This document shows positions 1 through 25,153 of a stretch of DNA of 25,153 nt, one piece after another (position 1 is the first letter of the stretch; each line of letters begins with the position of its first letter). The translations under genes were made by a program, and so were the position numbers. The notes beneath the pieces are model-generated. The model was not told the origin of the DNA. It worked only from the letters and a program-made list of their open reading frames with translations, and made no database searches. This stretch comes from a virus (taxonomy: Duplodnaviria; Heunggongvirae; Uroviricota; Caudoviricetes): IMG/VR virus record IMGVR_UViG_2740892236_000003; one strand, 5' to 3'.

Positions 1-51
1 ACAGAAGCCACTGGAGCACCTCAAAAACACCATCATACACTAAATCAGTAA

Positions 52-507
52 GTTGGCAGCATCACCAGCGAAGGTGATAACCGTTACCTGCGCAGGGAGC
101 AGAACGGCGCAGACATTCCGGATAAAGGGGCTTTTATCGATAACGTCGGTTTACGGGAAACGGTAAACAGGGCGGCGAATGCTCTGCCATCGGACGGCAC
201 CGCCGTTGCCGCGAATAGACTCGCCACCCCAAGAAATATTAATGGGGTTCCCTTTGACGGGACGCAGGACATAAACATCACTTCTGGTATAACACAGCAG
301 GATGCGGATTCCCGATATATCCAGGATATCAGGCTGGGAGCAGAGAACAGGCAGGTAATGTACGGTGGGGCATATTACTCTGCGTACGGTAATGTTATGG
401 CAGGCCTGCAGATTGACAGTAAAGTTGATGCTTCAAACGATTTTATAGCATTCAGACCCCTGCAAAAATTAGTCGGAGGTACATGGATTACGGTATCTCA
501 GTTATAA
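52..507 (+). CDS. Tail fibre C-terminal tip cassette (Sv-like), start-less, ~151 codons
   Basis: Frame 1 is open from 52 to TAA at 505-507 with no ATG or GTG near its 5' end. Translation ...[50 protein letters not shown]...[17 protein letters not shown]...[11 protein letters not shown] contains a GL(R/Q)ETVNRA(A/G)NA motif as recalled from P2 H at its constant/variable junction. In-frame TAA at 49-51, and stops in the other two frames at 41-43 and 75-77. Confidence 0.6.
134..159. other. Left invertase crossover site (gix/hix/cix-like, 26 bp)
   Basis: TTATCGATAACG-TC-GGTTTACGGGAA: two 12-nt half-sites around a central dinucleotide. It resembles Mu gixL as I recall it (TTATCCAAAACCTCGGTTTACAGGAA). 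Inverted relative to the site at 1451-1476 (central TC versus GA). Confidence 0.6.
134..249. repeat. Left arm of imperfect inverted repeat (~116 bp)
   Basis: The reverse complement of 134-249 aligns with 1341-1476 at roughly 85% identity by eye: identical runs of 23, 29 and 37 nt separated by a divergent ~25-nt patch. It encodes the shared N-proximal part of both fibre cassettes. Confidence 0.7.
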
Positions 508-558
508 ATAGTCAGTAAATAATATATTTTAAAACAGATTTATTTCCAGGAGGATTTT

Positions 559-1080
559 ATGGAACTAAAAAATATAACCCGTTATTATCCTGAAAATATG
601 CCATATGGTAATAATGTTCAGTATTTCCAGAGTGAAGATGGTAAGGATTTCTACGAATCCCTGCCATTATTCACCAAAAAATATAAACTTTGCATAACAC
701 CTGACAGCGGCGTTATCTGCTCAATATCACAGGACGCCTCGGCGCTGTATCCTGCGGGGTTTTCTGTGGTTGAGGTCGATGAACTCCCTGAAGGCACGGA
801 TATTTCAGGAAACTGGAAGTTTGATAATGGCATAATCTCCCGTATTCCGGTTAACTACGCAAGAAAACTGGAAGCAATGCGCCAGTCATATCTTAATCAG
901 GCATATGAAAAAATTAATGACTGGAGAACGGAGCTACAACTGGGCACCATCAGCGATGAAGACAGAGCAGCACTTACCCAATGGATGGCATACATCAGTC
1001 AGGTGAAGAAAATGGAACTACCCGCCATTAAAACAGAAGCTGAATTTAACGCCATTAAATGGCCTGAGCAGCCACAGTAA
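559..1080 (+). CDS. tfa: Tail fibre assembly protein (Tfa / Mu U-like chaperone)
   Basis: 173 aa. AGGAGG lies 6 nt upstream of the ATG. Sits immediately downstream of the fibre tip cassette. The C-terminal region (DEDRAALTQWMAYISQVKKMELPAIKTEAEFNAIKWPEQPQ) is typical of phage Tfa chaperones. The gene is AT-rich relative to the late operon. Confidence 0.8.
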   Translation: MELKNITRYYPENMPYGNNVQYFQSEDGKDFYESLPLFTKKYKLCITPDSGVICSISQDASALYPAGFSVVEVDELPEGTDISGNWKFDNGIISRIPVNYARKLEAMRQSYLNQAYEKINDWRTELQLGTISDEDRAALTQWMAYISQVKKMELPAIKTEAEFNAIKWPEQPQ

Positions 1081-1083
1081 TAA

Positions 1084-1103
1084 AGAAGGCCGGAAGGCCT
1101 TCT
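1084..1103. terminator. Hairpin between convergent tfa and minus-strand fibre cassette (possible bidirectional terminator)
   Basis: AGAAGGCC-GGAA-GGCCTTCT: perfect 8-bp stem with a 4-nt loop, flanked by AT-rich sequence on both sides. It lies exactly between the stop codons of the two convergent ORFs. Confidence 0.4.
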
Positions 1104-1111
1104 GAATATCA

Positions 1112-1495
1112 TTATATACTTGCAGCCGTCACCCATGCTCCATTTAACAGATACTGCAACGGCCGGTAATACACGCCGCCGACGTTATCTGCCGTATTCT
1201 TACCGACATCCTGTACTTTAATTCCGGTAAGAACATTGCCGCCCCCCAGATTCAGATCCCAGCTTTCCCATGTTCCGGGCATATGTGCGGTCACCGACCC
1301 CAGTCTTATGGCGGTTACTGTTCCTGATGAGATAGTGATATCCTGCGTCCCGTCAAAGGGAACACCATTAATTGTGTGGGCATTTGCCAGCCTGTTCGCG
1401 GCAACGGCGGTGCCGTCCGATGGCAGGGCATTCGCCGCCCTGTTTACCGTTTCCCGTAAACCGAGGTTTTCAGGAAAGCCAGGATTAACTCTGTT
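1112..1495 (-). CDS. Alternative tail fibre C-terminal tip cassette (S'v-like), start-less, ~127 codons
   Basis: The minus-strand frame is open from 1495 (just after an in-frame TAA at 1498-1496) to the stop at 1112. Translation ...[49 protein letters not shown]... then diverges into a different tip, ...HMPGTWESWDLNLGGGNVLTGIKVQDVGKNTADNVGGVYYRPLQYLLNGAWVTAASI. The first ~40 residues after the crossover site are shared with the plus-strand cassette. The Met reported by the ORF track at 1294 is an internal GTG. Confidence 0.6.
   Translation of the reverse strand, partial: NRVNPGFPENLGLRETVNRAANALPSDGTAVAANRLANAHTINGVPFDGTQDITISSGTVTAIRLGSVTAHMPGTWESWDLNLGGGNVLTGIKVQDVGKNTADNVGGVYYRPLQYLLNGAWVTAASI
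1341..1476. repeat. Right arm of imperfect inverted repeat
   Basis: Reverse-complement partner of 134-249; see the left arm. Confidence 0.7.
1451..1476. other. Right invertase crossover site (gix-like, 26 bp)
   Basis: TTCCCGTAAACC-GA-GGTTTTCAGGAA. Its reverse complement, TTCCTGAAAACC-TC-GGTTTACGGGAA, shares the inner half-site exactly with the left site. It lies 66 bp upstream of the invertase start, as gixR does for gin in Mu. Confidence 0.6.
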
Positions 1496-1541
1496 TTATT
1501 CCTCATGCGACAATTCCGGCTTTTTATAATAAGGAAATCGT

Positions 1542-2114
1542 ATGCTGATTGGGTATATCAGGGTGTCAACAAATGACCAGAATACGGCGCTACAAAGAAA
1601 TGCGCTGGAATGTGCAGGATGTGAGCTGTTTTTCGAAGACAGAATAAGCGGTAAGACAAGGGAGCGTCCCGGACTTAAACGCGCATTAAAGCGACTCCGG
1701 CCAGGGGATACCCTGCTGGTCTGGAAACTGGATCGCCTTGGACGCAGTATGCAGCACCTTGTCCTTTTAACAGAAGAACTCCGGCAACGCGGCGTTAACT
1801 TCCGCAGCATTACGGACAATATTGATACATCCACTCCCATGGGACGTTTCTTTTTCCATATAATGGGCGCGCTGGCGGAAATGGAGCGGGAACTCATTAT
1901 TGAACGTACACGCGCGGGTCTTGCTGCTGCCCGTGCTCAGGGGCGTCATGGCGGCAGACCTCAGAAACTGACAGAGAAAGAGCGGGAGCAAATCGCCCGT
2001 TTGCTGGCTAATGGCGAGTCCCGTAAACAAATCGCACTGATATTTGATATTGGCCTTTCCACCCTTTATCGTTATTTTCCTGCCTCACCAGCTCCGTCAC
2101 CAAAAGTACCGTGA
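1542..2114 (+). CDS. Serine DNA invertase (Gin/Pin/Hin/Cin family)
   Basis: 190 aa. The N-terminus MLIGYIRVSTNDQ carries the catalytic-serine motif of small serine recombinases; a resolvase-like core follows, and the C-terminus (QIALIFDIGLSTLYRY) is a helix-turn-helix. AAGGA lies upstream of the ATG. The gene abuts the invertible segment and reads away from it. Confidence 0.9.
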   Translation: MLIGYIRVSTNDQNTALQRNALECAGCELFFEDRISGKTRERPGLKRALKRLRPGDTLLVWKLDRLGRSMQHLVLLTEELRQRGVNFRSITDNIDTSTPMGRFFFHIMGALAEMERELIIERTRAGLAAARAQGRHGGRPQKLTEKEREQIARLLANGESRKQIALIFDIGLSTLYRYFPASPAPSPKVP

Positions 2115-2123
2115 CGCTTTTTT
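2095..2123 (+). terminator. Putative intrinsic terminator at the 3' end of the invertase gene
   Basis: CGTCAC-(10-nt loop)-GTGACG followed by C and TTTTTT (2118-2123). The stem overlaps the TGA stop codon. Confidence 0.45.
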
Positions 2124-2199
2124 GAATTTCCGCAAAACACATATTTTTCAGCGGTCGCTATTCTGACTCTGTTTAATTCAGAAACAGGCAGAAAAGACG

Positions 2200-4254
2200 A
2201 TGTCAGACTCCAAGTGGAAAATGCTCTCCGCCATGCCCGGAGAGTTTTCAGTCAAGGTTGCCGGTGGCACGGTGGCATTTATTGAAAGCCCTTTCCGCCC
2301 TTCGGGTAATAAAGGGGGGATCACCTTCGCAGACTGCGTGATCCGCTTCAGCACGAAAGAGCCATTATGGGTAATGCCGGTATCCGGTAATCCCAGTGCA
2401 GAAATCACCAGTTCAGGCGTGACTGGCATCATTCCAATCACATCTGACGTGGCCGGAACGCTCACGCCCTCCGACTGGAATGCACCGGATAACGCCGGGC
2501 CTTCCGGTAGCACGAATGGCAGCAGTTCAGAGCCGGAATATTACTTTGTTGTCATTCTCGCGGGTCAGTCAAATGGCATGGCCTACGGCGAGGGGCTGCC
2601 GTTACCGGATTCGTTTGACCGCCCGGACCCACGCATTAAGCAACTGGCACGCCGCAGTACGGTAACGCCCAACGGTACGTCGTGTACATACAACGACATC
2701 ATTCCGGCAGACCACTGCCTGCATGATGTTCAGGATATGAGCGGGATAAACCACCCGAAAGCTGATCTGGCAAAAGGCCAGTACGGGACTGTCGGTCAGG
2801 GGTTGCATATTGCCAAAAAACTGCTTCCCTATATCCCACAGAATGCCGGGATACTTCTGGTGCCCTGTTGTCGTGGCGGGTCAGCATTCACCACTGGAGC
2901 CGACGGCTCATTCAGTGAGGCCAGCGGTGCTTCCGCTGATTCTTCACGCTGGGGGGCCGGTAAACCTCTGTATCAGGACCTGGTAAGCCGCACCAAAGTC
3001 GCGCTGGCGAAAAACCCGAAAAACAAACTTCTGGCTGTGGTCTGGATGCAGGGAGAGGCAGACCTTGCCTCAGGAAGCCAGCAGCATAATAGTTTATTCA
3101 CGGCCATGGTTCAGCAGTTCAGAACTGACCTGGCTCCGCTTGCTGCGCAGTGCGTGAGTGGAAATGCCACCACGGTGCCGTGGATTTGCGGTGATACCAC
3201 GTATTACTGGAAAAACGCTGGCACCGATAAATATGAGGCAGTATACGGTGGCTACAAAGGCAAGGAAGCACAGAAAATTTTCTTTGTACCGTTCCTGACG
3301 GATGAGAATGGACAGAGCACGCCAACGAATGCTCCGGCGGAAGACCCGGATATTGTGGCTGTCGGGTATTACGGTGCAGCATCCCGAACCCAGGGCAGTT
3401 TTGTTTCGACACAGCGTGACAGCCATTTCAGCTCATGGGCACGCAGGGGCGTCATTTCAGACCGTCTGGCCTCAGCTATTATGCTCCATGCAGGGCGCAC
3501 GGCTGAACTGATGCGCGGGCAGACCGTGACACCACCGGATGAGAAGCCGTCACCTGATACACCATCAAAACCGTCCACGCCACCCGCAGACACCACGACG
3601 ATGAGTACGCTATTTGCTTACCGGGCATCTGAGTCTGAAGGACGGTTGACACCACAGGGTTGGGCTGCCGGAGGTGGCAAGGCTCAAATCGTGGATGATG
3701 CCGGAGCCAGCGGGGGTAAGGCAATGAAACTGACCAAGGAAACAGGAAGAGCCCCCTGGTACCTTGAGCATGATGCTGGTAATGGTGCGGACCTGCTGGG
3801 TAAAGGTGGTCTTGTCAGTTGTCGTTTTAAACTCGATGGCGCGCTTACGGCTAATCAGTACGCACTGGCGCTGTACTGGCCGGTTTCTGCCCTGCCGCAA
3901 GGGGTTACTCTGGAAGGAAATGCCGGTCATAACCTGCTGGCATCGTTCTACGTACAGAGCGATGCCACAGACCTTAACGTGATGTATCACAAAGGAAACA
4001 CGGCGCAGAACACGAAGCTGGGGTCATTCGGCGCATTTAATAACGAATGGCATACGCTGGGCTTCCGTTTTGCCGGTAACAACAGTATTGAGGTGACGCC
4101 GGTCATTGATGGTAAGGACGGGACACCATTCATGCTGTCGCAGTCTCCGGTCGGCACGTTTACGGCAGACAAGTTGCGCGTGACCGATATCACTAAAAAT
4201 GCGACTTACCCGGTACTGATTGACAGTATCGTGGTGGAAGTGAATAACGCGTAA
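2200..4254 (+). CDS. Multidomain SASA/SGNH-type carbohydrate O-acetylesterase-like protein (NanS-like) with Pro/Thr linker and C-terminal putative binding domain
   Basis: 684 aa. VVILAGQSNGMAYGEG (nt ~2545-2590) matches the GQSN catalytic block, and AVVWMQGEADL (nt ~3030-3060) the QGE(S/A)D block, of sialate O-acetylesterase (SASA) family hydrolases, both recalled from memory. A Pro/Thr-rich linker (PPDEKPSPDTPSKPSTPPADTT) precedes a ~230-aa C-terminal region that looks like a beta-sandwich or lectin-like domain. No N-terminal signal peptide is apparent. The RBS is weak and the start codon uncertain. Confidence 0.55.
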   Translation: MSDSKWKMLSAMPGEFSVKVAGGTVAFIESPFRPSGNKGGITFADCVIRFSTKEPLWVMPVSGNPSAEITSSGVTGIIPITSDVAGTLTPSDWNAPDNAGPSGSTNGSSSEPEYYFVVILAGQSNGMAYGEGLPLPDSFDRPDPRIKQLARRSTVTPNGTSCTYNDIIPADHCLHDVQDMSGINHPKADLAKGQYGTVGQGLHIAKKLLPYIPQNAGILLVPCCRGGSAFTTGADGSFSEASGASADSSRWGAGKPLYQDLVSRTKVALAKNPKNKLLAVVWMQGEADLASGSQQHNSLFTAMVQQFRTDLAPLAAQCVSGNATTVPWICGDTTYYWKNAGTDKYEAVYGGYKGKEAQKIFFVPFLTDENGQSTPTNAPAEDPDIVAVGYYGAASRTQGSFVSTQRDSHFSSWARRGVISDRLASAIMLHAGRTAELMRGQTVTPPDEKPSPDTPSKPSTPPADTTTMSTLFAYRASESEGRLTPQGWAAGGGKAQIVDDAGASGGKAMKLTKETGRAPWYLEHDAGNGADLLGKGGLVSCRFKLDGALTANQYALALYWPVSALPQGVTLEGNAGHNLLASFYVQSDATDLNVMYHKGNTAQNTKLGSFGAFNNEWHTLGFRFAGNNSIEVTPVIDGKDGTPFMLSQSPVGTFTADKLRVTDITKNATYPVLIDSIVVEVNNA

Positions 4255-4269
4255 GCAGGATAAAAAAAT

Positions 4270-4302
4270 GCCGCCGGTAAGGGAAAACAAGAAACCGGCG
4301 GC
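4270..4302 (-). terminator. GC-rich hairpin with a T-tract on the minus strand only
   Basis: GCCGCCGGT-(15-nt loop)-ACCGGCGGC, a 9-bp stem. On the plus strand it is followed by A-rich sequence, so it is a poor terminator for the esterase gene. On the minus strand it is followed by TTTTTTT. Confidence 0.3.
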
Positions 4303-4398
4303 AAAAAGATCGTTATATCCAAAGCAAAAAATGCAGTGCACCTTTTTACCTAACAGATATTACCGGTGTCAACACCATGTCAATAATTGGGAGGGATA

Positions 4399-4581
4399 AT
4401 GACATTTTTACAGCTTATTTTATTGTATTTCTGCACGGCAGTATGTGCGTTATATCTGGTGAGTGGTGGTTATAAGGCCATCAGAAATTATGTTCGCCGC
4501 AAAATTGAGGACGCAGCAGCTGAAAAACTCAGTAAAACAGCGCAGGTAACTCCGCTCCCAAAAGACCCGACCCAGCCCTGA
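4399..4581 (+). CDS. Small single-pass membrane protein (hypothetical)
   Basis: GGGAGGG lies 4-5 nt upstream of the ATG at 4399; the ORF track starts the frame at a TTG at 4387. The product is ~60 aa: a hydrophobic N-terminal segment (FLQLILLYFCTAVCALYLVSGGY) followed by a charged tail. Confidence 0.4.
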   Translation: MTFLQLILLYFCTAVCALYLVSGGYKAIRNYVRRKIEDAAAEKLSKTAQVTPLPKDPTQP

Positions 4582-4616
4582 TTGCAGGGCTTTATTCCCG
4601 CATAAGGAGGATATAC

Positions 4617-4871
4617 ATGCCAGAAATTAAAGGCACCGTCACTGAAGACCTGGTAAAACAGGCACTGTATTCCGGTGAAGTAAATAAGTTGCTGAAAGCG
4701 CAGGTCCGCAAGGATTTTGAGGCACAAATCGACACTTACGTTGATGAAGTGCTGGCAAAACTTATTGGGCCAGCAGTTGCGGCCAGTGATGCTGATAATG
4801 AGCCGAAAACCGACGCGCAGCCAGAGCAACCAGACCCGGCTCAGCCCGGAACTGACAGTACCATGATGTAA
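4617..4871 (+). CDS. Small acidic hypothetical protein
   Basis: 84 aa. A strong AAGGAGG lies 7 nt upstream of the ATG. The C-terminal half is acidic and Pro/Gln-rich. No recognisable family. Confidence 0.45.
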   Translation: MPEIKGTVTEDLVKQALYSGEVNKLLKAQVRKDFEAQIDTYVDEVLAKLIGPAVAASDADNEPKTDAQPEQPDPAQPGTDSTMM

Positions 4872-5264
4872 CAATACAAACCGGTGGTGTCCTCTGCCGG
4901 TTTGACACTAATGAAAACATCTTTGCCGCTATCCAGCCATATGTAATCGCTGGATAGTATTTCGTATTCAGAAATATAGCTGCTTATGGAGCAGTCAATC
5001 CTGCTTCCCCATCCGGGCAGGCAAATGAACCGGTATCATTAGTCCGATTCACGCTTTTGTAGAATCGTTCCCAGAATGCTATACAGCTCATTAGCCTGTT
5101 GCTCCATCATTGAGACGGAGGCTATACGGTGCAAAGTGATTTCAGGAGGTGGCACACCTCCATCTTCTTGCTGTGGAGGAAAAACATAAGATTTAATAAA
5201 AAAAGTTGAAGCATATGAACTCTCCCGCACTCGAACTGTATTTGCAGGCATCTGAATAATCGGA

Positions 5265-5274
5265 NNNNNNNNNN
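5265..5274. other. Assembly gap (10 N)
   Basis: A run of N. It truncates the minus-strand tail fibre ORF, and the translation beyond it is not protein-like. Confidence 0.95.
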
Positions 5275-5724
5275 TTTGCTGTAAACATCCAGATTATTAC
5301 GGGCGGTTCCCTTATTCTCCAGGTCGGCGAGATTCTGATCCTTCGCCAGGGCATTAACGTCAGCGGGACCAAGACTGTTTTTTGTGGCAAGCGTCCCCAG
5401 ACCAAGATAACCACGGGCCAGACGCTGGGCCTCCGCACCGGCATCAGCAATTTCTTTCAGGTTATTTTTCCGGGAAAAGGCATTCGCAGCGATAATGGCT
5501 TTAATGGACAGCGTAAGCTGGTTTAACTGCGCCTTATCCGGCTGAATACTGGCTTCAGCCAGAATATTCAGCAGTTCGGCCTGGAGAATATTCAGCCAGT
5601 CCTGACCAATCCAGCTGATACCTTTTTGTCCGTCACCTTCGGTAAACCAGGTGGTGGTATTACTCTGCGCCGGTGCCAGCGCAGGCATATTCGCCACGCC
5701 GGAATTATTATCAACATGAAACAT
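5275..5724 (-). CDS. Tail fibre protein, N-terminal constant part (Mu S-like), truncated by the gap
   Basis: The ATG at 5724 overlaps the stop of the upstream gp48-like gene (TAATG). The N-terminus MFHVDNNSGVANMPALAPAQSNTTTWFTEGDGQ... and the motif ...GYLGLGTLATKNSLGPADVNALAKDQNLADLENKGTARNNLDVYSK are typical of the N-terminal region of contractile-tail phage fibres. Only 150 codons are present before the N-run. Confidence 0.7.
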
Positions 5725-6284
5725 TAAATAGTCTCCTCTTCATGGCTGTTTGCATAAACGTAAATAAACGTCTGCCATGCAGGCTTATAACGGTTCAGAA
5801 TACATTCCAGCGCACCGCCTTCATAAATACGCAGCGGCGTGAGAATATCATCCAGCACATTCATATTCCGGTAGCCGGTTTCACTGTTAATCGTGACAAT
5901 ACTGACCCACTGCGAATCCGGTGAGGGCTGAATGTCAATCTGATAACCAAACTCCGCCGCAAACCGGATATAAAATTCACGGTTCAGCGAGGGCTTCATC
6001 CGGTATTTATTTCCGGCATAACGCTGTCGCTCCGTGAGGGTGGCTCCGGCCATATCACACTCGGGAAGCCCGAGATAACGCTCCCAGTCTTCCAGCAGCA
6101 GGCGCGACGTGTCAGGGAAACGCTCGGCAAGCAGCTGTTTACCCGTCCAGGATACACGCGCTGTCGAATGACTGAGGCCCAGACATAATGATGCCAGTAC
6201 GGATGACGGACGCTTGTCCCATGCCAGCCCGTCAGGCAGTAACTGCAACAGGGCGCGCTGATGCGGGGTCAGGGTTACAGCCAT
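5724..6284 (-). CDS. Baseplate/tail protein, Mu gp48 (R) / P2 gpI / YmfQ-like
   Basis: 186 aa. Lies between the baseplate J-like gene and the fibre gene. AGGAG RBS. Matches the Mu gp48 position and size. Confidence 0.7.
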   Translation of the reverse strand: MAVTLTPHQRALLQLLPDGLAWDKRPSSVLASLCLGLSHSTARVSWTGKQLLAERFPDTSRLLLEDWERYLGLPECDMAGATLTERQRYAGNKYRMKPSLNREFYIRFAAEFGYQIDIQPSPDSQWVSIVTINSETGYRNMNVLDDILTPLRIYEGGALECILNRYKPAWQTFIYVYANSHEEETI

Positions 6285-7357
6285 GTGATTTCTCCTACCG
6301 TCAGCAGCTCACTGTCTCCCGCCTGAACTGACGTCAGCGGACTGCGCACTTCAAAATCCTCCAGATTTTTCACCCCTGCCACCGCCCGCCAGAAAGACGA
6401 CGGCAGAACCAGACCGCCGGGCCGGGATTCGTTATACAACAGGTCGGTCAGCGCCTGTTTTACGGCCGCCTGATTCTCCGGTGTTTTCGGGATGCTCCTG
6501 ATGCTGAAGGGCACCGGCTTATTGGTCAGTTTAAACACGGTCACCGTCGGCCCCAGAGGCTGTCCGACAGGCTGGCCGGTCGCCGGATCATCATGACTGC
6601 GGATATAATCCGCCACCCGCTGAACATCACCGTCACCGGGGAAAATATCCGGGTTATTATCCTGAACAAACGTTACCCCCACGCTGCCCGCCTGCGGCCA
6701 TTCCGGGCGGCACCATGCCCGCGTCACGCCCGGCACTTCACGCGCCCAGCGTTCAAAATCATACTGCGTGCCGCCGGACGGTGGATTCTGCACCCGGAAA
6801 ACCAGACGGGAAAGCAGCTCCGGCACGGTTTCCACATCCGCACCACCGGTGATCCCCGTTCCGGTCACCGTGGCCGTCTGGTTGATCCCCGCCTGCGGTG
6901 TGATAAATGTCAGTTTTGTCCCTGCCGGGGCATTCCCCGCACGACCGGCACTTTCGGCTTCCACACTGACATTCAGCGTACCGGCCTTACCGGTCAGGGA
7001 GGTGGTGATACGGTAAACCACGCCATCACTTCGCTGGAGAAGCACACCTTCCTTGATCCCCGCATCCGTGGTCAGCATCAGCTGAACCGGCCCGTCCCCC
7101 CGAGAGGCAGGCTTACGCATGACGCCCCAGAATGCACAGTGTTTCAGCAGTTCGGCTTCATCGGCTTCGGTCGGGATGATCTGACGCGCAATCCAGGCCA
7201 GATGCTCATGCTCCTGAGCAGATAACCCTGCCTGAGCGTAAGCAATGGCATTCAGGGTGGTTTCATTCACACCCGGCTGCGAGCCGGGCAGGCGCTGGCT
7301 GATATCCTGCTGTGTCTGCGTGATTAACTGTGCCAGCGGTAAAGGCTGATAAGGCAT
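6275..7357 (-). CDS. Baseplate J-like protein (Mu gp47 / W)
   Basis: 360 aa. Position and size fit Mu gp47; sequence is typical of the Baseplate_J family. Confidence 0.8.
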   Translation of the reverse strand: MPYQPLPLAQLITQTQQDISQRLPGSQPGVNETTLNAIAYAQAGLSAQEHEHLAWIARQIIPTEADEAELLKHCAFWGVMRKPASRGDGPVQLMLTTDAGIKEGVLLQRSDGVVYRITTSLTGKAGTLNVSVEAESAGRAGNAPAGTKLTFITPQAGINQTATVTGTGITGGADVETVPELLSRLVFRVQNPPSGGTQYDFERWAREVPGVTRAWCRPEWPQAGSVGVTFVQDNNPDIFPGDGDVQRVADYIRSHDDPATGQPVGQPLGPTVTVFKLTNKPVPFSIRSIPKTPENQAAVKQALTDLLYNESRPGGLVLPSSFWRAVAGVKNLEDFEVRSPLTSVQAGDSELLTVGEITWL

Positions 7358-7794
7358 TACTCCCCCTTAAGATCAGCATAAAAAATCATGGGCCTCACTG
7401 AACCATCAGGCAGGGTTATGCGCACCGAAAGCGCCAGCCGCGCGTGTCCCACACGTTCTGCATGACAGACCACGGATGACGCCACGCCATCCTGACTGAG
7501 CCAGCCCAGCGCCTCATCCGCGTAAGCACGGGCACGGCTTATCACCGAGGCCAGCGTTTTTTCCCGGCTGAGAAGCCACAGACGGGAGCCAATGGGGCGC
7601 GGGCGAAAACTGTCTCCCCACCATCCCCGGCGGTCGCGCGTACCGTCAGGGATTTCATCCGATGCCAGCGCCCGGCGGTCAGTAAACAGCGAAATCAGAA
7701 CGGCCGTCAGCAGACTGTCATCCGTCAGCAGGTCGGCACCGTTCAGTTGCAGCGAACCGCATCCCTGATCCCACACAATTGCAATATCAGCCAT
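7357..7794 (-). CDS. Baseplate protein, Mu gp46-like (P2 gpW / T4 gp25-like)
   Basis: Real start is probably the internal ATG at 7794 (MADIAIVWDQGCGSLQLNGADLLTDD...), giving ~145 aa with GGAGA upstream. The ORF-track start at 7938 would overlap the upstream gene by 150 nt. Confidence 0.7.
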   Translation of the reverse strand: MADIAIVWDQGCGSLQLNGADLLTDDSLLTAVLISLFTDRRALASDEIPDGTRDRRGWWGDSFRPRPIGSRLWLLSREKTLASVISRARAYADEALGWLSQDGVASSVVCHAERVGHARLALSVRITLPDGSVRPMIFYADLKGE

Positions 7795-8401
7795 TCTCCG
7801 GCACTCCTGTCTTACTGCCTTCGCCGTTATCATGATGCACATGGCCGGAATACCGTATCCCTGCAATAACGGCATCCGACATTGTGAACAGTCCCTGAGA
7901 TTTCCCCGTACCCTCAAGCGCGAAATTACCCTTAACATGCAGGTTCTTATCCACCGTCACATTGCCCGTAAAGGTGGCTTCCGGCGTATCCACCCGCATC
8001 CCCTCGTCGGCGTAAATCTCCAGCATTTTGCATGTCACAATAATGCGGCCATCCTTTGTTAACCGTATCCGGTGCCCCTCATGGTGATACACCCCCGTAT
8101 CTCCGGCTGTGAGTCCGGTCGGGCGGCTGCGCCGGTCTTCCACCACAAGCACCACAGTCTGATCCCGCTGTCCGCCCAGACAGGCAAAAAAGGTTTCCGC
8201 ACCCGGCAGGGGAACGCTGATCTGCCCGTACTGCTGGGGACGCTCCACATCATCAAAGGTTTCGCCGTCCATGCCGGTGAGCTGCACATTCTGCATTTTC
8301 AGTTCGTCATGTGTGCCGGTCAGAACGCCCCGGCCAAACAACAGGCGAATACCGCGCGTTACCGGGGCAATCAGGCGGCTGAACACTTCATCATTCATCA
8401 A
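7787..8401 (-). CDS. Baseplate assembly/spike protein, Mu gp45 / P2 gpV-like
   Basis: 204 aa. Position between the P-like and gp46-like genes. Confidence 0.75.
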   Translation of the reverse strand: MMNDEVFSRLIAPVTRGIRLLFGRGVLTGTHDELKMQNVQLTGMDGETFDDVERPQQYGQISVPLPGAETFFACLGGQRDQTVVLVVEDRRSRPTGLTAGDTGVYHHEGHRIRLTKDGRIIVTCKMLEIYADEGMRVDTPEATFTGNVTVDKNLHVKGNFALEGTGKSQGLFTMSDAVIAGIRYSGHVHHDNGEGSKTGVPENG

Positions 8402-9515
8402 AGCTGATCCCCTGTTTTTTCATCTGCTGGCGAATAAAGGCATCAACATCGTCACCGGAACCACCCCGGCCCTTACTGTCCGGCTCTGCCGGAACGATAA
8501 AGCCGTCACGCGGTGCCAGTACCAGCCGGGTGACTTCCCCGTTATGCTCATCAAGTAAAAACTCCACCTGACAGACCAGCAGTTCAGTCTGTTCTATACC
8601 GAAACGCAGGGCTGAAACACCGGTCAGCAGATTGACATCCCATAACCGGCCATCATCCCGGAACCAGCCACGCACGGTGGCAGAAAACCGTTCTGAACGG
8701 GCAATCGCACGGCGCATTTCACGCAGGGCACGCTGCCGTGCACCGGTGATGTCTGTCTGTTGATCGGCGAGGATGATTTTCGGCCGGTAGCGGCCGATCT
8801 GCTCATCACTGATGACGCCCACAGGTGCTGCCAGACGGGCGGCGGATTCGCTGTCTCCCCGTTTGCCACCACCGCGCCCGTGTCCCCGGACACGGTATTC
8901 GCTGTATCGTCCTCGCCAGTCCGTGTTGTAATCGGCATCAAGCAGGTTATCTCCCAGCACCAGTCTGTCCGTCTGCTGGCTTCCTGCCTGGGTGAACACC
9001 AGATCGCCGTCAGCATTACTGGTCACCAGCACCCCGCGATGCCGGGCAGCACGGGTCAGCGCATCCGCCACGGTTTCTGAGTTTTCCAGCGTAAAAGAGC
9101 TGAAGGGGCGTGCAGCCGTGTCGTCGTTAACCTGCCAGCGCACGGCTATCCCGAAGGGCGCACATAAATCTGCGGCAATCTGTGCCAGCGTCCGGTTGCG
9201 CCACTGGCTGCCGGGATGGATGGCGGCACAGTCCACCAGGTCGCCGGTTTTATCCCGACCGCTGATGCTGATCTGATGACGGGTTGCACTGATCCGCTGA
9301 CTGACCTGATCCAGCCAGCCACTGATGACCGTCTGCCCGTTAATTCTGAGCGTCAGGGACTGACCGGTCCGCAGGGCTGAGGGGATGCGCTCACCGGGCA
9401 GCATCAGCCCCAGTTCAAACGACCCGGCCAGATGCTCCAGCGAGCGACGGACGCTGACCGTCAGCCAGCCGGAAAAAATACTGCCGCCGATATACAGTTC
9501 AATCCTGCTGCTCAC
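8391..9515 (-). CDS. Tail protein, Mu P (gp44) / P2 gpD-like
   Basis: 374 aa. Size and position match Mu gp44; MSSRIELYIGGSIFSGW... N-terminus. Confidence 0.75.
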   Translation of the reverse strand: MSSRIELYIGGSIFSGWLTVSVRRSLEHLAGSFELGLMLPGERIPSALRTGQSLTLRINGQTVISGWLDQVSQRISATRHQISISGRDKTGDLVDCAAIHPGSQWRNRTLAQIAADLCAPFGIAVRWQVNDDTAARPFSSFTLENSETVADALTRAARHRGVLVTSNADGDLVFTQAGSQQTDRLVLGDNLLDADYNTDWRGRYSEYRVRGHGRGGGKRGDSESAARLAAPVGVISDEQIGRYRPKIILADQQTDITGARQRALREMRRAIARSERFSATVRGWFRDDGRLWDVNLLTGVSALRFGIEQTELLVCQVEFLLDEHNGEVTRLVLAPRDGFIVPAEPDSKGRGGSGDDVDAFIRQQMKKQGISFDE

Positions 9516-10857
9516 TGATCACCTCCACGCGGCGGCCACCCGGAACAAAAACCGGATCGGGGATATTGTTTCTGCGGACAAAATACTGCCAGCGGCGGCT
9601 GTTACCGGTGGCACGGTACAGCGTGACCAGTGCCGGTTCGGTGGTTCGCACCATGACCTGAAAAGCACCGGGAAGATGCACGCTCCGCGTGGTTAAATCT
9701 TCTGTCAGCGCAAGCCCTGCATCACGTAATGCAAGGGCGGTGCCGGTATGGCCCTGTGCGGACAGATCCAGCACCTGTTGTTCCATGGCATCGCTCAAAT
9801 CCCGGTTGATACGCTGCACATCAGCAGAACTTTCCAGCCAGGCCAGTCCGCCCGCACGGTCAGTATCCTGAACGTGCGTCGTATTCTGCCGGATGACCTG
9901 ATCCAGCAGTTTTCCGACCGTCTGCGCCTGCGACACCAGGGCTGCACTCTGCATGACGCTCCGCAGCAGACGGATATTGTTCTGTGCCGCAGGCGTCAGA
10001 CCAATCAGGCGCTGCGGATCATCCTGTTCGCTGAGGGTGTAACGCAGGGAAGAAAGTGTGCGGTACAGCTGCGGCATGGCCTGCTCTGTCGTGCTGTCAC
10101 GGTTTGTGGTCAGGCTGCCGGACGGCGTTCCGGCTTTTCCGGTCAGCGACAGGGAAGGAGCGCCGGGCAGCCCCGCCAGCACGGCAAACATTCCGGCCAG
10201 CGATTCAGCCATGCGACGGGGCGCATTAATCAGGGCGGCGGCATTCCCTTTCAGGGCAGTAAAACTGGCCGTAAAGGCACTGATATCCTGCACAATCCCC
10301 ATCCCTGAAACGGCATTCTCCAGCGCATCAATTTTATCGCTGATGGTGTCGGTCATGGCCTGTACATCATGCAGACCGTCTGAAATCACCGTCCAGCCGT
10401 CTGAAAGTGTGTTAAACAGCTGATTCATTGCTGAGCCGCTTTTCTGCTCCAGCGCAGCTGCCGTATCTTCTGCCACCGAAGGGGCGGTATCGTCACTGGC
10501 GGGGATCACGTTGATCGTGAACTCAACCGTTCCCTGCTCGCTGGCGTTATAACGGCTTTCAAAGCTGTTTATCAGCACGTTTAACGTGCCGTAATCCGGG
10601 TGCATCAGTTCACCGGCACCGGGTGCACGCAGCGCATCACGCAGGCGGCTTCGCTGTGTCTGAAGATCGTCTCCGGTCACTAGAACCGTGAATGTGAACT
10701 CCGGGAGTTTTGGCCCCAGATCATCCGCACCGCCGCTTTCACGCAGTGGGTATTCACGGCGCACAATGTTACGTCCGCCCCGTTCCCGCTGCTCCTGATA
10801 AACCAGGAACGGTACGCCACGAAAGGAGCCACGCCCCGGCGTGTCAGTAGAGGCCAT
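9499..10857 (-). CDS. DNA circularisation protein N-like tail protein (Mu gp43)
   Basis: 452 aa. The N-terminal region (GSFRGVPFLV...) resembles the DNA-circulation N-terminal domain. Sits directly downstream of the tape measure gene. Confidence 0.75.
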   Translation of the reverse strand: MASTDTPGRGSFRGVPFLVYQEQRERGGRNIVRREYPLRESGGADDLGPKLPEFTFTVLVTGDDLQTQRSRLRDALRAPGAGELMHPDYGTLNVLINSFESRYNASEQGTVEFTINVIPASDDTAPSVAEDTAAALEQKSGSAMNQLFNTLSDGWTVISDGLHDVQAMTDTISDKIDALENAVSGMGIVQDISAFTASFTALKGNAAALINAPRRMAESLAGMFAVLAGLPGAPSLSLTGKAGTPSGSLTTNRDSTTEQAMPQLYRTLSSLRYTLSEQDDPQRLIGLTPAAQNNIRLLRSVMQSAALVSQAQTVGKLLDQVIRQNTTHVQDTDRAGGLAWLESSADVQRINRDLSDAMEQQVLDLSAQGHTGTALALRDAGLALTEDLTTRSVHLPGAFQVMVRTTEPALVTLYRATGNSRRWQYFVRRNNIPDPVFVPGGRRVEVISEQQD

Positions 10858-12901
10858 AGTTCCCTCCGTTCCAGACGTTCACATCCAGGCCATGCTGTGC
10901 GGTATCATCCACATCAATACTGCGCGCCCGCCAGCCTTCAGGGGCCACAAGCTCCACCCGTGCGGCGGTTTTCGCGGTGGCCTGTCCGCCGTTTTCGTCA
11001 CTGCTGCCACGCAGTTTCTGCCAGGCCTGCGTCAGCCAGCCCCCCAGATAATCACCGAGATAGCTGCCCACCGTGGAACCAATGGCAACCCCGACCGGAC
11101 CGGCAGCCGCCCCCAGCGCGCCACCGGCGATACTTCCGGCAAGAGAACCCACGGCACCGGCTTTATCGGCTGCACTGGCGCTGCTGTCCAGCAGTACAGG
11201 AGCCGCCATGGCACCGGCCCACAGGGCACCACCACCCAGCCGACCGGCACCACGGAACAGCCCGGCAAAACGCCCCAGCCCCATGCGGTTTCCGGCCGCC
11301 GTTAGCAGACCACCGGCACGGCTCATCATACGACCGAAGAAGCCCTGTTTACCGGCACTCTCCGCCAGTTGCTCACCGGCAGTCACGACGGTCGTGACAC
11401 CCCGTCCACGTCCGGGGCCGCGTTTTTTACGGCCGCGCACGGTTTTGCCGTCACCGCTGACCACCACATCCCCGCCACCTGAGGCCAGGCCACCCGCAGG
11501 CCAGTTGGTGACCAGCACGGGCTGAACGGCAGCCGGATTTACCCCGGTAAGGAAATTCAGGAACCGGCCAGCGCGTCCGGGCTGCGTTCCCGGTACAGTG
11601 GTCTGCGGTTTGCGGAAGGGCGACGTCAGCACGGAGGTCATCGCCATGCCATAGCGTAAGGGGGTTGCGCCGAGACGTAATGCCCCCGTCCCTGCAAACC
11701 TGAGCACCTTCAGCGCACGGGAGGCGAGATACATATACATCAGGTACTTTGCGGCGGTCTGCGCACCCTGACCAATACGATCCAGCGCATCGCCATAACC
11801 GGCGTCGCGCAGTGCCTGAAGCGTTTCCCTGACTTTCTGAATGGCCCGGTAAAAGCCGGTCGCAGCATCTCTGGCATACTCAAATCCCTGATTCAGTGCT
11901 GAGGCCGTCTGTGTGGCCAGCTTATCCTGTAAGCCGCTTTTCTGTGCCGCATCGGCATAATCCAGAAAGCCTTTCAGGCTCTTTTTCAGGCTGTCAAACG
12001 GTCCCTTCGCCATCACGTCACGGGCAAACTGATCCCAGACGTCACCCATCATGGACGTCATTCCCGTCCATGAGTTCATGGCGTTTTTCTGGGCACCTTT
12101 TGCCTGTTCGGCCATCACCTGAAATAACAGGCGAATGCTGTCCGGTCCCAGTTTTCCTTTCTCGCCTTTCTCACGGATGATCTTCTGGTTTACACCCAGC
12201 TTATCGGCCAGTAACTGGTAAACGTTAATCCCGTATCCGGTCAGAATATTGGCGTCCGCTGCCTGGATACTCTGGCGGGCAAACATCTGTTTGAGTTGCA
12301 GGGACGCACCCTGTGCCTCTGACAGTGACCAGCCGTGATAGCCGCCCTGATCCTGAAGCATGGTAATAAAGCGACGGGCTTCCCTGTCACTCATGCCAAA
12401 CCCGCGACTGGAGGCGTATTCCTGCATAACCCCCGCCAGCCCCCAGGTGGTGTCTTTGGCGTTCTGTACCGCCCAGGCTTTCACTGCTTCCGTTTTTGCC
12501 TTATCGCCATGATTAATGGCGTTGAGACGCAGAATATAGTTCTCCATCTCTGCGGCCGGGCGGATAAAGGCTTTATTAAAACCGTAGACCGCAGCCCCTC
12601 CCGCCAGCATCCCGTAAAGGTTGCTTATCCGCCCGATGGTGCCGGTAATGCTGCCCTGCAGGCGGTCAAAATCTGACGTTACCGTGCGGATACTGCCACG
12701 AACACCGGCAAGCGTTCGCTGCATACGGGAGCCAACAAGCTCTGTTTCCTGACCTGCCCGGCGTGCTGCATTTCCAAGACCACCCAGCCCCGTCCTGCCG
12801 GAACGGGAGAATGCCCCCAGCTCCTGTGACCACTGGCGGGATTTGGCGGAAATATTGCCGAGTAAATCGACAATCAGGGAGGCTTTCAGGTTTTTTGCCA
12901 T
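10844..12901 (-). CDS. Tail tape measure protein (Mu Y / gp42-like)
   Basis: 685 aa, alpha-helical, Ala/Gly/Gln-rich with a Gly-rich C-terminal region. Downstream of the sheath, tube and chaperone genes. Confidence 0.85.
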   Translation of the reverse strand: MAKNLKASLIVDLLGNISAKSRQWSQELGAFSRSGRTGLGGLGNAARRAGQETELVGSRMQRTLAGVRGSIRTVTSDFDRLQGSITGTIGRISNLYGMLAGGAAVYGFNKAFIRPAAEMENYILRLNAINHGDKAKTEAVKAWAVQNAKDTTWGLAGVMQEYASSRGFGMSDREARRFITMLQDQGGYHGWSLSEAQGASLQLKQMFARQSIQAADANILTGYGINVYQLLADKLGVNQKIIREKGEKGKLGPDSIRLLFQVMAEQAKGAQKNAMNSWTGMTSMMGDVWDQFARDVMAKGPFDSLKKSLKGFLDYADAAQKSGLQDKLATQTASALNQGFEYARDAATGFYRAIQKVRETLQALRDAGYGDALDRIGQGAQTAAKYLMYMYLASRALKVLRFAGTGALRLGATPLRYGMAMTSVLTSPFRKPQTTVPGTQPGRAGRFLNFLTGVNPAAVQPVLVTNWPAGGLASGGGDVVVSGDGKTVRGRKKRGPGRGRGVTTVVTAGEQLAESAGKQGFFGRMMSRAGGLLTAAGNRMGLGRFAGLFRGAGRLGGGALWAGAMAAPVLLDSSASAADKAGAVGSLAGSIAGGALGAAAGPVGVAIGSTVGSYLGDYLGGWLTQAWQKLRGSSDENGGQATAKTAARVELVAPEGWRARSIDVDDTAQHGLDVNVWNGGNYGLY

Positions 12902-13028
12902 GGGTTACTGCTTCGTTCTGAGAATTTTTTCGGTCTGTCGGCAGTGCCGGTAAAGCTGCGATAAGGGGAGGTTAAGCGCCCACTCCGGGCCGCTTTTTGT
13001 CACCATCCCCAGCACAATTGCGGCTTCT

Positions 13029-13508
13029 TCAATCTGATCCCGGCACTGCATCTGGTCGCCCCCGTTCAGCGACCAGCTTTCCTGCCATCGCGGAATCAAG
13101 CAGGCTTACCGCCGCCATCAGACGGGAGAGATCGCGCTCGCTGAGCTGTCCGATCTGACGCGGAGACAATGGCCCCTCAATCTGGCCAACAGCGGCAATC
13201 TGACGGCGCAGCAGTGCAATGCCGCGCAGTGCCGGCGAGGCTATCAGAACCGGGCCGCCATTTCGGGTTTCCATAAGACGCTCGGCCTCGGTTTCCGCGT
13301 CAATGCTGTCTTTCGCCGTCAGTTCGCGGAAGGTGACGCGGTATTCACGGGATTCCCCGAACGGCAGACCGTCGAGCAGATCCACATAGCCGTTCGCCAG
13401 CTGTTCAGCCAGCCCGGCGGTGCGGGGATCGCCGTCTTCAAGTACATCCCGGATAGCCTCCATCACGGCCTCGTCAGAAACCGCCGTTTTTTTCTTACGT
13501 GTGGTCAT
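13029..13508 (-). CDS. Tail assembly chaperone (Mu gp41-like), positional call
   Basis: 159 aa, acidic. Lies between the tail tube and tape measure genes, the conserved chaperone slot. Confidence 0.5.
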   Translation of the reverse strand: MTTRKKKTAVSDEAVMEAIRDVLEDGDPRTAGLAEQLANGYVDLLDGLPFGESREYRVTFRELTAKDSIDAETEAERLMETRNGGPVLIASPALRGIALLRRQIAAVGQIEGPLSPRQIGQLSERDLSRLMAAVSLLDSAMAGKLVAERGRPDAVPGSD

Positions 13509-13522
13509 TGCATTTTTCCTGA

Positions 13523-13888
13523 TTACTGGACACGGGTACTGGTGGCGCTGGCGAACTTCGCGGAGATATCACCGCCACCGTCAAGCGAGGCCGGTTCACT
13601 GCTCCAGGCCTTCGTCATCATATGGACTTCACCGGTATCGGCCACGAACTCAATCGTGACCGCAGTCCAGGTGTTGATTTCATCGGCAGCCGGTGAACCT
13701 TCTCCGCCAGCCGGAAATTTACAGTCCAGCGTCGCCTCACGGGGTTTCTCACGATAGCCATAGACTTTCGCGCCTTTCACCACTTCACGCTCAAAGCCGG
13801 ACGGGGAGAACGTGGCTCCCTCAAGGGTGGCGTACTCCTGTCCGTTCACACGGATGGTGGCCGTGCCCTGATGCTGTTTTCCGCTCAT
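13523..13888 (-). CDS. Tail tube protein (Mu M-like)
   Basis: 121 aa, immediately downstream of the sheath gene. Confidence 0.75.
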   Translation of the reverse strand: MSGKQHQGTATIRVNGQEYATLEGATFSPSGFEREVVKGAKVYGYREKPREATLDCKFPAGGEGSPAADEINTWTAVTIEFVADTGEVHMMTKAWSSEPASLDGGGDISAKFASATSTRVQ

Positions 13889-13896
13889 GCCTTACC

Positions 13897-15399: not shown

Positions 15400-15686
15400 C
15401 AGGACGTCCCCTTGTCTGATGCTGCGGGTTTTTCAGTCGCGGGTTTTTCAGTCGCAGGTTTTTCTGCTGCCGCTCCCGCGGGTTTTCCGGCGGCATCAGT
15501 CGTTGCAGACGCTGCTGCCGGTGCTGCTTCAGCCGCTTTTTCCACCACAATGACATCCCCGTCATTAAGACGGCGGCACCAGAACGGGGTGAAGGGTTTT
15601 TCCTCTCCCTCCTGCGCCAGCGGTTTCATGGTGTCCGGATCGCGGATCAGGCATCCCGGCGCGGGTTTGATAAAAATGGTTGTCAT
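15399..15686 (-). CDS. Mu gp38-like small protein with (EKPAT)n repeat tail
   Basis: 95 aa. N-terminus MTTIFIKPAPGCLIRDPDTMKPL...GDVIVVEKA. The C-terminus is a low-complexity Ala/Glu/Lys/Pro repeat encoded by the 15-bp tandem repeat at 15424-15468. Confidence 0.6.
   Translation of the reverse strand: MTTIFIKPAPGCLIRDPDTMKPLAQEGEEKPFTPFWCRRLNDGDVIVVEKAAEAAPAAASATTDAAGKPAGAAAEKPATEKPATEKPAASDKGTS
15424..15468. repeat. 15-bp tandem direct repeat, 3 copies (third imperfect)
   Basis: GCGGGTTTTTCAGTC, GCGGGTTTTTCAGTC, GCAGGTTTTTCTGCT. On the minus strand it encodes EKPATEKPATEKPAA in the gp38-like protein. Confidence 0.8.
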
Positions 15687-15689
15687 CTG

Positions 15690-16253
15690 TTATTCCTCTG
15701 ACGGTCCGGCTTTTTCACCGGCGGCGGTTGCACCTGGCAGGCTGATGTGCGCCTTAAATTCCGGTGTGCCTTCCGGTTCGGTGAAGGTTTCGTAATGGCG
15801 CAGGAAATCATCCAGCGAGCTGATATCAGTCAGCGGTGCGATCATTTCCTCGCAGGAGAAATAAAGCGCATACATCACCGCGCCACTGTCGGCCTGCGTT
15901 TCGGTGTAACCGTTGACCGCCTTTTCAAAGTAAAGCGGTGAGGTTTTTTCGGTTCTGAAGCCGTCCAGCACGGTAATCAGGCGGGCCACAATCTGATAAA
16001 GCCCGGGACGGCTGACCTCACGGCCATTGAGCATGTCGCCGATGACGTAGAACACCCAGTGGCTGACCAGACGCCCACGGGTACGGCCTTCACCGGCACC
16101 CAGCCAGGCAACGTAGATCGCCGGGGCGCTAATCAGCATGGTGCGCAGCACACTGTCGCTCCAGTCGCCGGGATGCGTGTCAACTGACACCAGTTCATTC
16201 CCGAAATACTCACGGATACGGGCGATGTACGCTTGCTCGGTTTCCGTAATCAT
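15690..16253 (-). CDS. Mu gp37-like protein
   Basis: 187 aa. Position between the gp36-like and gp38-like genes; 4-nt overlap with the upstream gene. Confidence 0.6.
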   Translation of the reverse strand: MITETEQAYIARIREYFGNELVSVDTHPGDWSDSVLRTMLISAPAIYVAWLGAGEGRTRGRLVSHWVFYVIGDMLNGREVSRPGLYQIVARLITVLDGFRTEKTSPLYFEKAVNGYTETQADSGAVMYALYFSCEEMIAPLTDISSLDDFLRHYETFTEPEGTPEFKAHISLPGATAAGEKAGPSEE

Positions 16254-17019: not shown

Positions 17020-17062
17020 ATTTGCCCTCCGCAGGGGCCGGGCCGTAAGCCCGGCTCACCGT

Positions 17063-19785: not shown

Positions 19786-19825
19786 ATTGCCTCCGCATAA
19801 AGGATGAATATAAAATAAACAGGCG

Positions 19826-19905: not shown

Positions 19906-19906
19906 G

Positions 19907-24884: not shown

Positions 24885-24894
24885 GATTCACCTC

Positions 24895-25152: not shown

Positions 25153-25153
25153 C

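Follow-up and report, generated by a model that had tools for sequence, protein, structure and literature searches.

The tail-fibre gene of a Mu-like prophage of E. coli appears here in two halves that face opposite ways, and this layout probably reflects a contig break induced by IS1 or another repeat together with an unreliable scaffold join, in which case the flipped 5.3-kb block would be a scaffolding artefact and not a new inversion. The stretch analysed (the window, 25,153 nt) is one entire draft WGS record, CCVS01000099.1 of the E. coli assembly GCA_000752955.1. Whether the record ends at positions 1 and 25153, a point raised in an earlier note on this DNA, can be answered in the affirmative: record and window have the same length (25,153 bp), and position 1 is a true contig end that lies inside IS1. 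Three short-read contigs make up the record, c1 (1–5264), c2 (5275–24434) and c3 (24445–25153), and the N runs between them (5265–5274 and 24435–24444) are each exactly 10 N long, that is, fixed placeholders, not measured gaps. The earlier reading had overlooked the IS1 end, the whole-record and three-contig make-up, and the two-allele overlap at the second N run. Scans of the window for tRNAs and Rfam families gave no match, and a literature search for GCA_000752955 and CCVS01 found no paper. The features are as follows.

1–66, minus strand: IS1 terminus of 66 bp (IRL with the first insA bases), which reads outward toward the adjoining fibre gene and opens the record
67–507, plus strand: tail-fibre nt 451–891, covering the last stretch of the constant part and then the left gix site and tip cassette 1 (441/441; PHROG 1833 positions 151–321)
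134–159, no strand: left gix-like site TTATCGATAACGTCGGTTTACGGGAA, within the inverted repeat 139–224/1386–1471
559–1080, plus strand: tail-fibre assembly protein, the sole tfa in the invertible segment (Pfam Caudo_TAP, E 4.8e-19; PHROG 136)
1112–1480, minus strand: alternative tip cassette (PHROG 1833 profile positions 173–322)
1451–1476: right gix-like site, inverted relative to 134–159
1542–2114, plus strand: Gin-family serine DNA invertase, intact, 190 aa (Pfam Resolvase and HTH_7)
2200–4254, plus strand: cargo, a 684-aa protein with SASA-type carbohydrate esterase and DUF6645 domains (Pfam; PHROG 143, function unknown)
4399–4871, plus strand: small DUF1378 and DUF826 genes
5040–5264, minus strand: hypothetical gene (WP_000571916.1 in relatives), lacking 36 nt at its start, at the contig end
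5265–5274, no strand: scaffold join 1, N10 placeholder
5275–5724, minus strand: tail-fibre nt 1–450, the constant N-terminal part (449/450 to L001; PHROG 1833 positions 1–150)
5724–24434, minus strand: Mu-like late genes (gp48, baseplate J, gp46, gp45, gp44, DNA circularisation, tape measure, tube, sheath, head, protease, portal, terminase)
24285–24595, no strand: scaffold join 2, with 150-nt flanks duplicated across the N10 at 24435–24444, two alleles

The split tail-fibre gene

Read from 5724 to 5275 on the minus strand, the window holds nt 1–450 of an 891-nt Mu-like tail-fibre gene, and nt 451–891 follow at 67–507 on the plus strand. E. coli DLI.5a has this 891-nt ORF intact (L001 5551–6441). 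Against it, the reverse complement of 5275–5724 agrees with nt 1–450 at 449 of the 450 positions, and 67–507 agrees with nt 451–891 (L001 6001–6441) at all 441. The pieces abut with no base lost or doubled (450 + 441 = 891 nt; 890/891 identity to the intact gene), and the PHROG 1833 (tail fibre) profile is shared out likewise, positions 1–150 to the N part and 151–321 to the C part. Identity extends further on either side: 5275–6300 is identical to OZ547136, and c1 from 67 to 5264 shows no mismatch to L001 6001–11196. The earlier note had the fibre N-terminus (5275–5724, minus strand) running into the N gap, which fits nt 1–450 with the N10 at 5265–5274, and it rightly saw no intact fibre ORF as drawn, since the halves lie on opposite strands. 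Its placement of the continuation, with gix and tip cassettes, at 52–1495 in the opposite orientation holds from 67 onward; 1–66 is the IS1 end instead. The rest of the block (tfa, second tip, invertase and cargo) is as it described, by domain and profile matches. A 200-aa ORF that crosses the gap (5122–5724, minus strand), already listed in the collection, contains XXXX and is an artefact; a cluster look-up of it gave no exact-sequence match.

What lies at the split point? Positions 1–66 match the IS1A termini of uxuR-IS1 and yraJ::IS1, two unrelated loci, at every base, with the flanks diverging beyond 66, and this terminus adjoins the fibre at nt 451, exactly where the gene is split; the record contains the junction IS1 IRL-AGCGAAGGT. 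No IS1 sequence is found at 5275 on c2, nor any IS sequence at the right end of c1 (5199–5264), which is pure phage DNA. No 9-bp IS1 target duplication is visible, the N part stopping at nt 450 and not at 459, a weak test given that the gap edge was possibly trimmed. IS1 occupies a median of ~10 places per E. coli genome. Its junction with the fibre gene occurs in none of 5,426 complete genomes and gave no match in exact-pattern scans of IMG/VR, GTDB representative genomes and JGI metagenomes. A homologue search with the 150-aa N part for an IS1 fusion (predicted 176 or 179 aa) or an inversion-junction fusion (173 aa) found neither among the matches fetched, which covered seven of the best ten plus three lower-ranked ones; all were ordinary partial proteins ending at the G-segment boundary. 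A recurrent IS1-in-fibre junction, considered for IS1 matches extending to query positions 93–97, was discarded, these being unrelated loci with chance flank similarity.

A Mu-like prophage with an invertible fibre tip

The record carries a Mu-like transposable prophage. Its late gene set and order are of Mu type, including the gpT head protein, as judged by Pfam on the called genes and by the annotation of near-identical complete prophages. Relatives adjoin ten different host neighbourhoods, and Mom, MuB and Mu transposase families occur in related loci; the prophage ends fall outside the window, and the end genes (com-mom, transposase, MuB) were assessed in those loci. DNA identity to Mu, D108 and SfMu is confined to a few hundred bases. 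As in the Mu G segment with its Gin-driven switch (S/U, S'/U'), a constant fibre N-terminus is followed by gix, inverted tip cassettes, a second gix, a Gin-family invertase and, at the right end, com-mom. Unlike in Mu, one tfa serves two tips, ~3 kb of cargo (SASA esterase/DUF6645, DUF1378, DUF826 and the hypothetical gene) separates gin from com-mom, and the fibre is short (296 or 293 aa).

The two gix-like sites, each 26 bp and in inverted orientation, bracket the alternative C-terminal cassettes, and the left one matches what we take to be the sequence of Mu gixL at 22 of 26 positions. The repeat pair at 139–224/1386–1471 (86 nt, 93%) is the only long inverted pair in 1–5724, and residues 1–184 of the invertase match the Mu Gin structures 3UJ3 and 4M6F (~E 1e-88). 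Both in-silico orientations of G give full fibre ORFs, of 296 and 293 aa; the latter, from the in-silico flip, agrees in length with WP_000469166.1, a fibre CDS of 882 nt (293 codons) annotated in complete genomes. In nature, too, the 1.3-kb segment is found both ways round, even within one genome, where the two DLI.5a copies are opposite; orientation differs between H1–H5 and H6–H15, and all ten contigs (10/10) carry the other orientation. Finished genomes with the same fibre truncation, sought by means of the 49-aa tip fragment, were not returned by that look-up, which gave normal prophages only, with G in the other orientation.

Gene order in related prophages

The fibre halves are contiguous in all 223 of the complete E. 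coli genomes that have the gene, which is the restored junction. In nine complete genomes, window positions 67 and 5275 map to adjacent coordinates on opposite query strands. The order there runs from the late genes through the fibre, the G segment with tfa and second tip, the invertase, the SASA/DUF6645 cargo, DUF1378, DUF826 and the hypothetical gene to com and mom, and the same order recurs in 10 of 10 long contigs at different host sites. In the references the hypothetical CDS extends to L001 11232, with com and mom next, and the normal continuation past P5264 toward com-mom reads AAAATAATC. On these alignments, the natural place of c1 is immediately downstream of the fibre N-terminus and on its strand. 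The scaffold junction 5264|5275, by comparison, is found nowhere in the 5,426 complete genomes, the GTDB representatives or IMG/VR. The earlier proposal that inverting 1–5264 gives the Mu order is right as to the order, which is the natural one (223/223 genomes), but flipping the block in place restores no intact ORF here, since the IS1 stub would sit between the halves. Polymorphism between reference copies was considered as the cause of the break at 5264 and set aside, since three copies show no difference between P4465 and P6609; the reference copies leave this break unexplained.

Contig ends and scaffold joins

At join 2, 24285–24434 and 24446–24595 overlap with 4 mismatches, or 5 differences when the pair 24284 (T) and 24445 (C) is counted. 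As these flanks overlap and represent two alleles, there is no real gap at the second N10, and two alleles are present in the sample; as they are also non-identical, the join is demonstrably imperfect. Contig c2 stops exactly 66 nt past its last variant, and c3 opens on a variant base. A 66-nt regularity thus appears in three places: c1 begins with the IS1 stub, c2 ends in an invariant tail, and the first base of c3 is a variant one. From this we infer contig ends of the kind left by a de Bruijn graph at k = 67, and such ends would imply that the sample contained this prophage DNA in two copies or variants; closely related genomes hold 2–6 copies or remnants of this element. The assembler, probably Velvet-like, would have run at k = 67, a value that suits 100-nt reads, and would have written the node after a gap without its k-1 prefix. 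The model rests on one clear test case, join 2, and on the behaviour of Velvet, which drops this prefix at gaps.

How could these elements produce the layout of the record? A contig boundary exactly where the IS1 end meets fibre nt 451 would make the fibre look split, and the opposite orientation of c1 would stem from an unreliable join in a repeat-rich context, with IS1 present and the prophage DNA in more than a single copy or variant. If the node after the gap lacks its k-1 prefix, fibre nt 450, the first base after join 1, would be the first base that tells c2 from a path sharing the preceding 66 nt, for which IS1|451–516 would be the simplest candidate. The reads would then also hold an intact 450|451 junction, and IS1|451 would come from a second copy, or from a subpopulation, produced by IS1 insertion or by an IS1-mediated adjacent deletion. 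Short-read scaffold artefacts at repeats, where N runs of minimum length link de Bruijn contigs, share the N10 at both joins, the duplicated flanks of join 2, the record end in an IS and the 66-nt (k-1) regularity. The wrong orientation, however, is unusual for pair-aware scaffolders, unlike a wrong distance. A properly working scaffolder implies read pairs that link 5264 with 5275, and the choice of the right over the left end of c1 as partner for c2 is not accounted for by an unreliable join.

Alternative explanations

The earlier note had left the choice between a scaffold joined in the wrong orientation and a real large inversion. The three contigs, the N10, the imperfect join 2 and the lack of the junction in all 5,426 complete genomes give the misjoin the better support. 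A real IS1-associated inversion of ~5.2 kb (fibre nt 451 to P5264), whether in the source genome or in a single copy of the prophage, appears unlikely. The scaffold as written has exactly such an orientation, a single event would cover both breakpoints with IS1 at one of them, and the k = 67 model accommodates direct adjacency of 5264 and 5275 in one copy without contradiction. IS1-mediated inversions are classical. In the classical version of such an event, the first N10 would conceal a second, inverted IS1; in a non-canonical version, 5264 would join 450 directly and IS1 would lie at the opposite junction alone. Only one IS1 stub (1–66) is seen at c1, whose right end has none; a second IS1 could be concealed in that N10. 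Under the Shapiro model, every IS1 transposition product should carry the 9-bp duplication on both sides, but the N and C parts share no such duplication, which would be expected in inverted orientation on both target sides. Nor do we know of any canonical mechanism whose inversion product would be bounded by a single IS1 and a clean junction. Neither the complete genomes nor two other collections contain the 5264|5275 junction, and the other join of the same scaffold is demonstrably imperfect. That one prophage copy carries a genuine 5.2-kb inversion (fibre C-terminus to gin plus cargo) with a clean 5264|450 junction and a single IS1 opposite strikes us as highly improbable; if true, it would point to one-ended or otherwise aberrant IS1 strand transfer, since no canonical IS1 pathway gives this combination.

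An ordinary IS1 insertion in the fibre gene of a single-copy prophage, with a collapsed IS1 that broke the assembly, a misoriented c1 and a 9-bp duplication and stub on the c2 side lost by edge trimming, is doubtful. It would draw on the IS1 end that adjoins nt 451, on the abundance of IS1 in E. coli, and on the flipped c1, which yields the exact layout of an insertion (fibre-N, gap, IS1 stub, fibre-C). A perfect IS1A terminus at fibre nt 451 and contig breaks at the repeat are features shared with IS1 insertions or adjacent rearrangements in prophage genes; unlike a typical insertion, the record includes a single IS1 end, of 66 bp, and displays neither the second junction nor the expected 9-bp target duplication. 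A simple insertion would show ...CAGCAAAAGCGAAGGT followed by the IS1 IRR end. Yet c2 stops at nt 450 without the 451–459 overlap and without an IS1 stub, whereas c1 keeps its stub, and neither the second break at 5264, where there is no IS, nor the two alleles of join 2 are accounted for. An inversion by Gin at a secondary site, enlarging the invertible segment to 1–5264, could appeal to the intact Gin-like invertase inside the block and to a motif resembling a gix half-site just upstream of the break (GTTTACAGCAA, read by eye). It is extremely unlikely, and ruled out on coordinates: the break 66|67 precedes the left gix site (134–159) by 67 bp, and lies at the IS1 terminus and not at the gix core or crossover, and is therefore not a Gin inversion; the IS1 junction contradicts this origin, no gix-like sequence is found at 5264, and the long inverted repeats in 1–5724 are the normal G-segment pair only.

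Implications

All components of the record are of kinds already known: a Mu-like prophage, a Gin-invertible fibre tip and an IS1 end in a fibre gene. For annotators the case carries a caution, as a truncated or chimeric fibre gene, or a large prophage inversion, could be wrongly called from this record. For the phage itself, much would hinge on copy number: if the IS1 lesion sits in the only copy, the prophage would be unable to make fibres, and if an intact copy coexists, as the contig-end pattern suggests, there would be no loss.

Record layout and the split fibre gene

An exact protein match to the ORF spanning the first N run traced the window to NCBI assembly GCA_000752955.1, record CCVS01000099.1. 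This record measures 25,153 bp, as does the window, which is therefore the entire record; positions 1 and 25153 are its true ends, a point on which the earlier note had asked for certainty. Two runs of exactly ten N each separate three pieces:

Pieces of the record (window coordinates)
1-5264: piece c1
5265-5274: first N run (join 1)
5275-24434: piece c2
24435-24444: second N run (join 2)
24445-25153: piece c3

Is the tail fibre gene truly split, as had been claimed? Measured against an intact homologue in E. coli DLI.5a (an 891-nt ORF, locus L001, 5551-6441), the split is exact: fibre nt 1-450 are the reverse complement of window 5275-5724 (449/450 identical), nt 451-891 are window 67-507 (441/441), and 0 bases are lost and 0 duplicated between the halves at 450|451. 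Both halves match tail-fibre family PHROG 1833, at positions 1-150 and 151-321, respectively. Because they lie on opposite strands, no intact fibre ORF exists as drawn; a 200-aa ORF at 5122-5724 (minus strand) spans the first N run and contains XXXX in its sequence.

Gene order in relatives and the IS1 end

When c1 and c2 were searched by megablast, window 67 and window 5275 fell at neighbouring record positions, on opposite query strands, in 9 complete genomes (in one of these, OZ547136, the junction is 4892964|4892965). A 190-nt query across the restored fibre junction was unbroken in all genomes with any match (223/223). Annotated relatives share the following order:

Gene order in annotated relatives
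late genes and gp48
fibre
tfa (tail-fibre assembly gene) and second tip
invertase
DUF6645/SASA protein
DUF1378 and DUF826
small hypothetical gene
com
mom
host DNA

The same order is common to 10 further long contigs, beside 10 different host neighbourhoods, as expected of a transposable Mu-like phage. The proposal that inverting 1-5264 yields the Mu-type order is therefore correct. The flip does not, however, give an intact gene, but fibre-N, N10, 66 bp of IS1 and fibre-C.

Window 1-66 is identical to the IS1A terminus at the unrelated insertion sites uxuR-IS1 and yraJ::IS1, with identity ending at 66|67. Position 1 of the record thus lies within IS1, whose end sits directly against fibre nt 451, the exact split point. 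This IS1|451 junction occurs in 0 of 5,426 complete E. coli genomes and was not found in IMG/VR, GTDB representatives or JGI metagenomes. At its right end, c1 carries no IS sequence and has 0 mismatches to L001 through 5264. Every IS1 transposition product is expected to show a 9-bp target duplication on both sides.

Contig ends and the two joins

Join 2 is flanked by one 150-nt sequence in two copies (24285-24434 and 24446-24595) with four mismatches. The base ahead of each copy differs, T at 24284 versus C at 24445, the reference carrying the c3 allele (C); in all, 5 differences (24284, 24290, 24311, 24312 and 24368) separate this stretch from 24445 onward. The join creates a false tandem duplication inside terminase-region ORFs (window 24284-24595). 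The last variant of c2 is 24368, and c2 ends exactly 66 nt beyond it; c3 starts on a variant base, and the IS1 stub opening c1 is also 66 nt long. We infer that contigs end in this way when they are de Bruijn nodes built with k = 67, the post-gap node being written without its k-1 prefix, as Velvet would probably do; Velvet also writes a minimum gap of 10 N. The contig-end pattern therefore means that the N10 runs are placeholders, not measured gaps. At join 2 an unmerged bubble has been written out as a spurious tandem duplication, and the prophage DNA of the sample comes in two alleles, either as two copies or as two variants. A k of 67 for 100-nt reads would follow if the record was made by the Sanger Illumina pipeline, which runs Velvet with k at 66%-90% of read length, then SSPACE and GapFiller (PMC5320598).

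How might join 1 have arisen? Position 5275 (fibre nt 450) would be the first base separating c2 from another path with the same preceding 66 nt. The simplest common prefix would be the reverse complement of window 67-132, after which the paths would part, one going on to fibre nt 450 and the other entering IS1. Such a two-path arrangement would explain the exact abutment without a 9-bp target duplication. The reads would then include the intact 450|451 junction, and IS1|451 would belong to a second copy or subpopulation, via insertion or IS1-mediated adjacent deletion. As for the break at 5264, three reference copies are identical across P4465-P6609 (P5264 is window 5264), so that differences between them do not explain it; we therefore infer something strain-specific, such as two-copy divergence right after 5264.

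Invertible segment, cargo and remnants

The invertible segment is normal. It is bounded by gix-like sites within an 86-nt inverted repeat:

gix-like sites (window coordinates)
134-159: 26-bp site
1451-1476: 26-bp site

The Gin-family invertase is intact and matches Mu Gin structures at E of about 1e-88. Joined in silico, the halves encode a fibre of 296 aa; with G flipped in silico, the fibre has 293 aa. Both lengths agree with annotated fibre CDSs of complete genomes (891 nt and 882 nt), and both orientations are found in nature, including the two copies within DLI.5a. Whereas Mu has U and U', this segment carries one tfa for two alternative fibre tips (tfa and second tip, window 559-1480). 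The tfa is co-oriented with tip 1; the flipped segment, encoding the 293-aa fibre, has no same-strand tfa downstream. A Gin event is ruled out as the cause of the split: the left gix site begins only 67 bp downstream of it, and nothing gix-like was seen at 5264. Just upstream of the break, GTTTACAGCAA (window 5286-5296, fibre nt 439-449) resembles a gix half-site, which we take to be GGTTTACAGGAA; the likeness is probably coincidental, since its position does not suit a crossover at 450|451.

The invertase (window 1542-2114, 190 aa) is also intact in several complete prophages. Its homologues are:

Invertase homologues
L001 (DLI.5a), 7476-8047
L002 (AST46), 7497-8068
L015 (DLI.5a), 5954-6525

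In the deleted remnants in DLI.5a and AST46, the annotation gives the invertase gene a frameshift; even so, the two remnants in DLI.5a have the G segment fixed in opposite orientations.

In the genomes closest to c1 the element is present several times, as copies or remnants; of the two in DLI.5a, one has 0 mismatches to c1. Internally deleted Mu-like remnants (L001, L015 and L002) are fixed in ypdB and beside bglJ/fhuF, and keep only early or right-end parts, fibre to mom. Fibre-region matches occur at two to six places in several genomes. Between gin and com-mom, all relatives seen conserve a SASA/DUF6645 cargo gene; the 684-aa product (window 2200-4254) combines a SASA-type carbohydrate esterase domain with a C-terminal DUF6645, and may, purely by analogy, be a surface-polysaccharide deacetylase. 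Its PHROG 143 match gives no function. RefSeq annotates a 'tRNA-OTHER' in OZ547136 (L003 23552-23631) between virion morphogenesis and minor head genes, corresponding to window about 19790-19900; ARAGORN and Rfam scans found nothing in the window.

Artefact or inversion?

The junction as drawn, 5264|5275, occurs in 0 of 5,426 complete genomes and was not found in GTDB representatives or IMG/VR, the record's only other join is demonstrably imperfect, and to our knowledge the drawn structure is not the product of any canonical IS1 pathway. The most likely reading is therefore an artefact of scaffolding among repeats, and its two-path version is, on balance, the probable course of events. A single-copy IS1 insertion combined with mis-orientation would be an artefact of the same sort; we regard it as improbable. 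A real IS1-associated inversion would, besides the missing junction and the imperfect second join, have to accommodate the lack of an IS1 stub at 5264 and of any target duplication, and we think it rather unlikely; it keeps some weight because the artefact offers no explanation for why a pair-aware scaffolder chose the wrong end of c1.

Everything combined in the record is of a known kind: the prophage is Mu-like, its fibre switch is of the Gin/G-segment type, the insertion-sequence end is that of IS1, and the scaffold follows short-read conventions. The large inversion that the record seems to show is not established as part of the genome.
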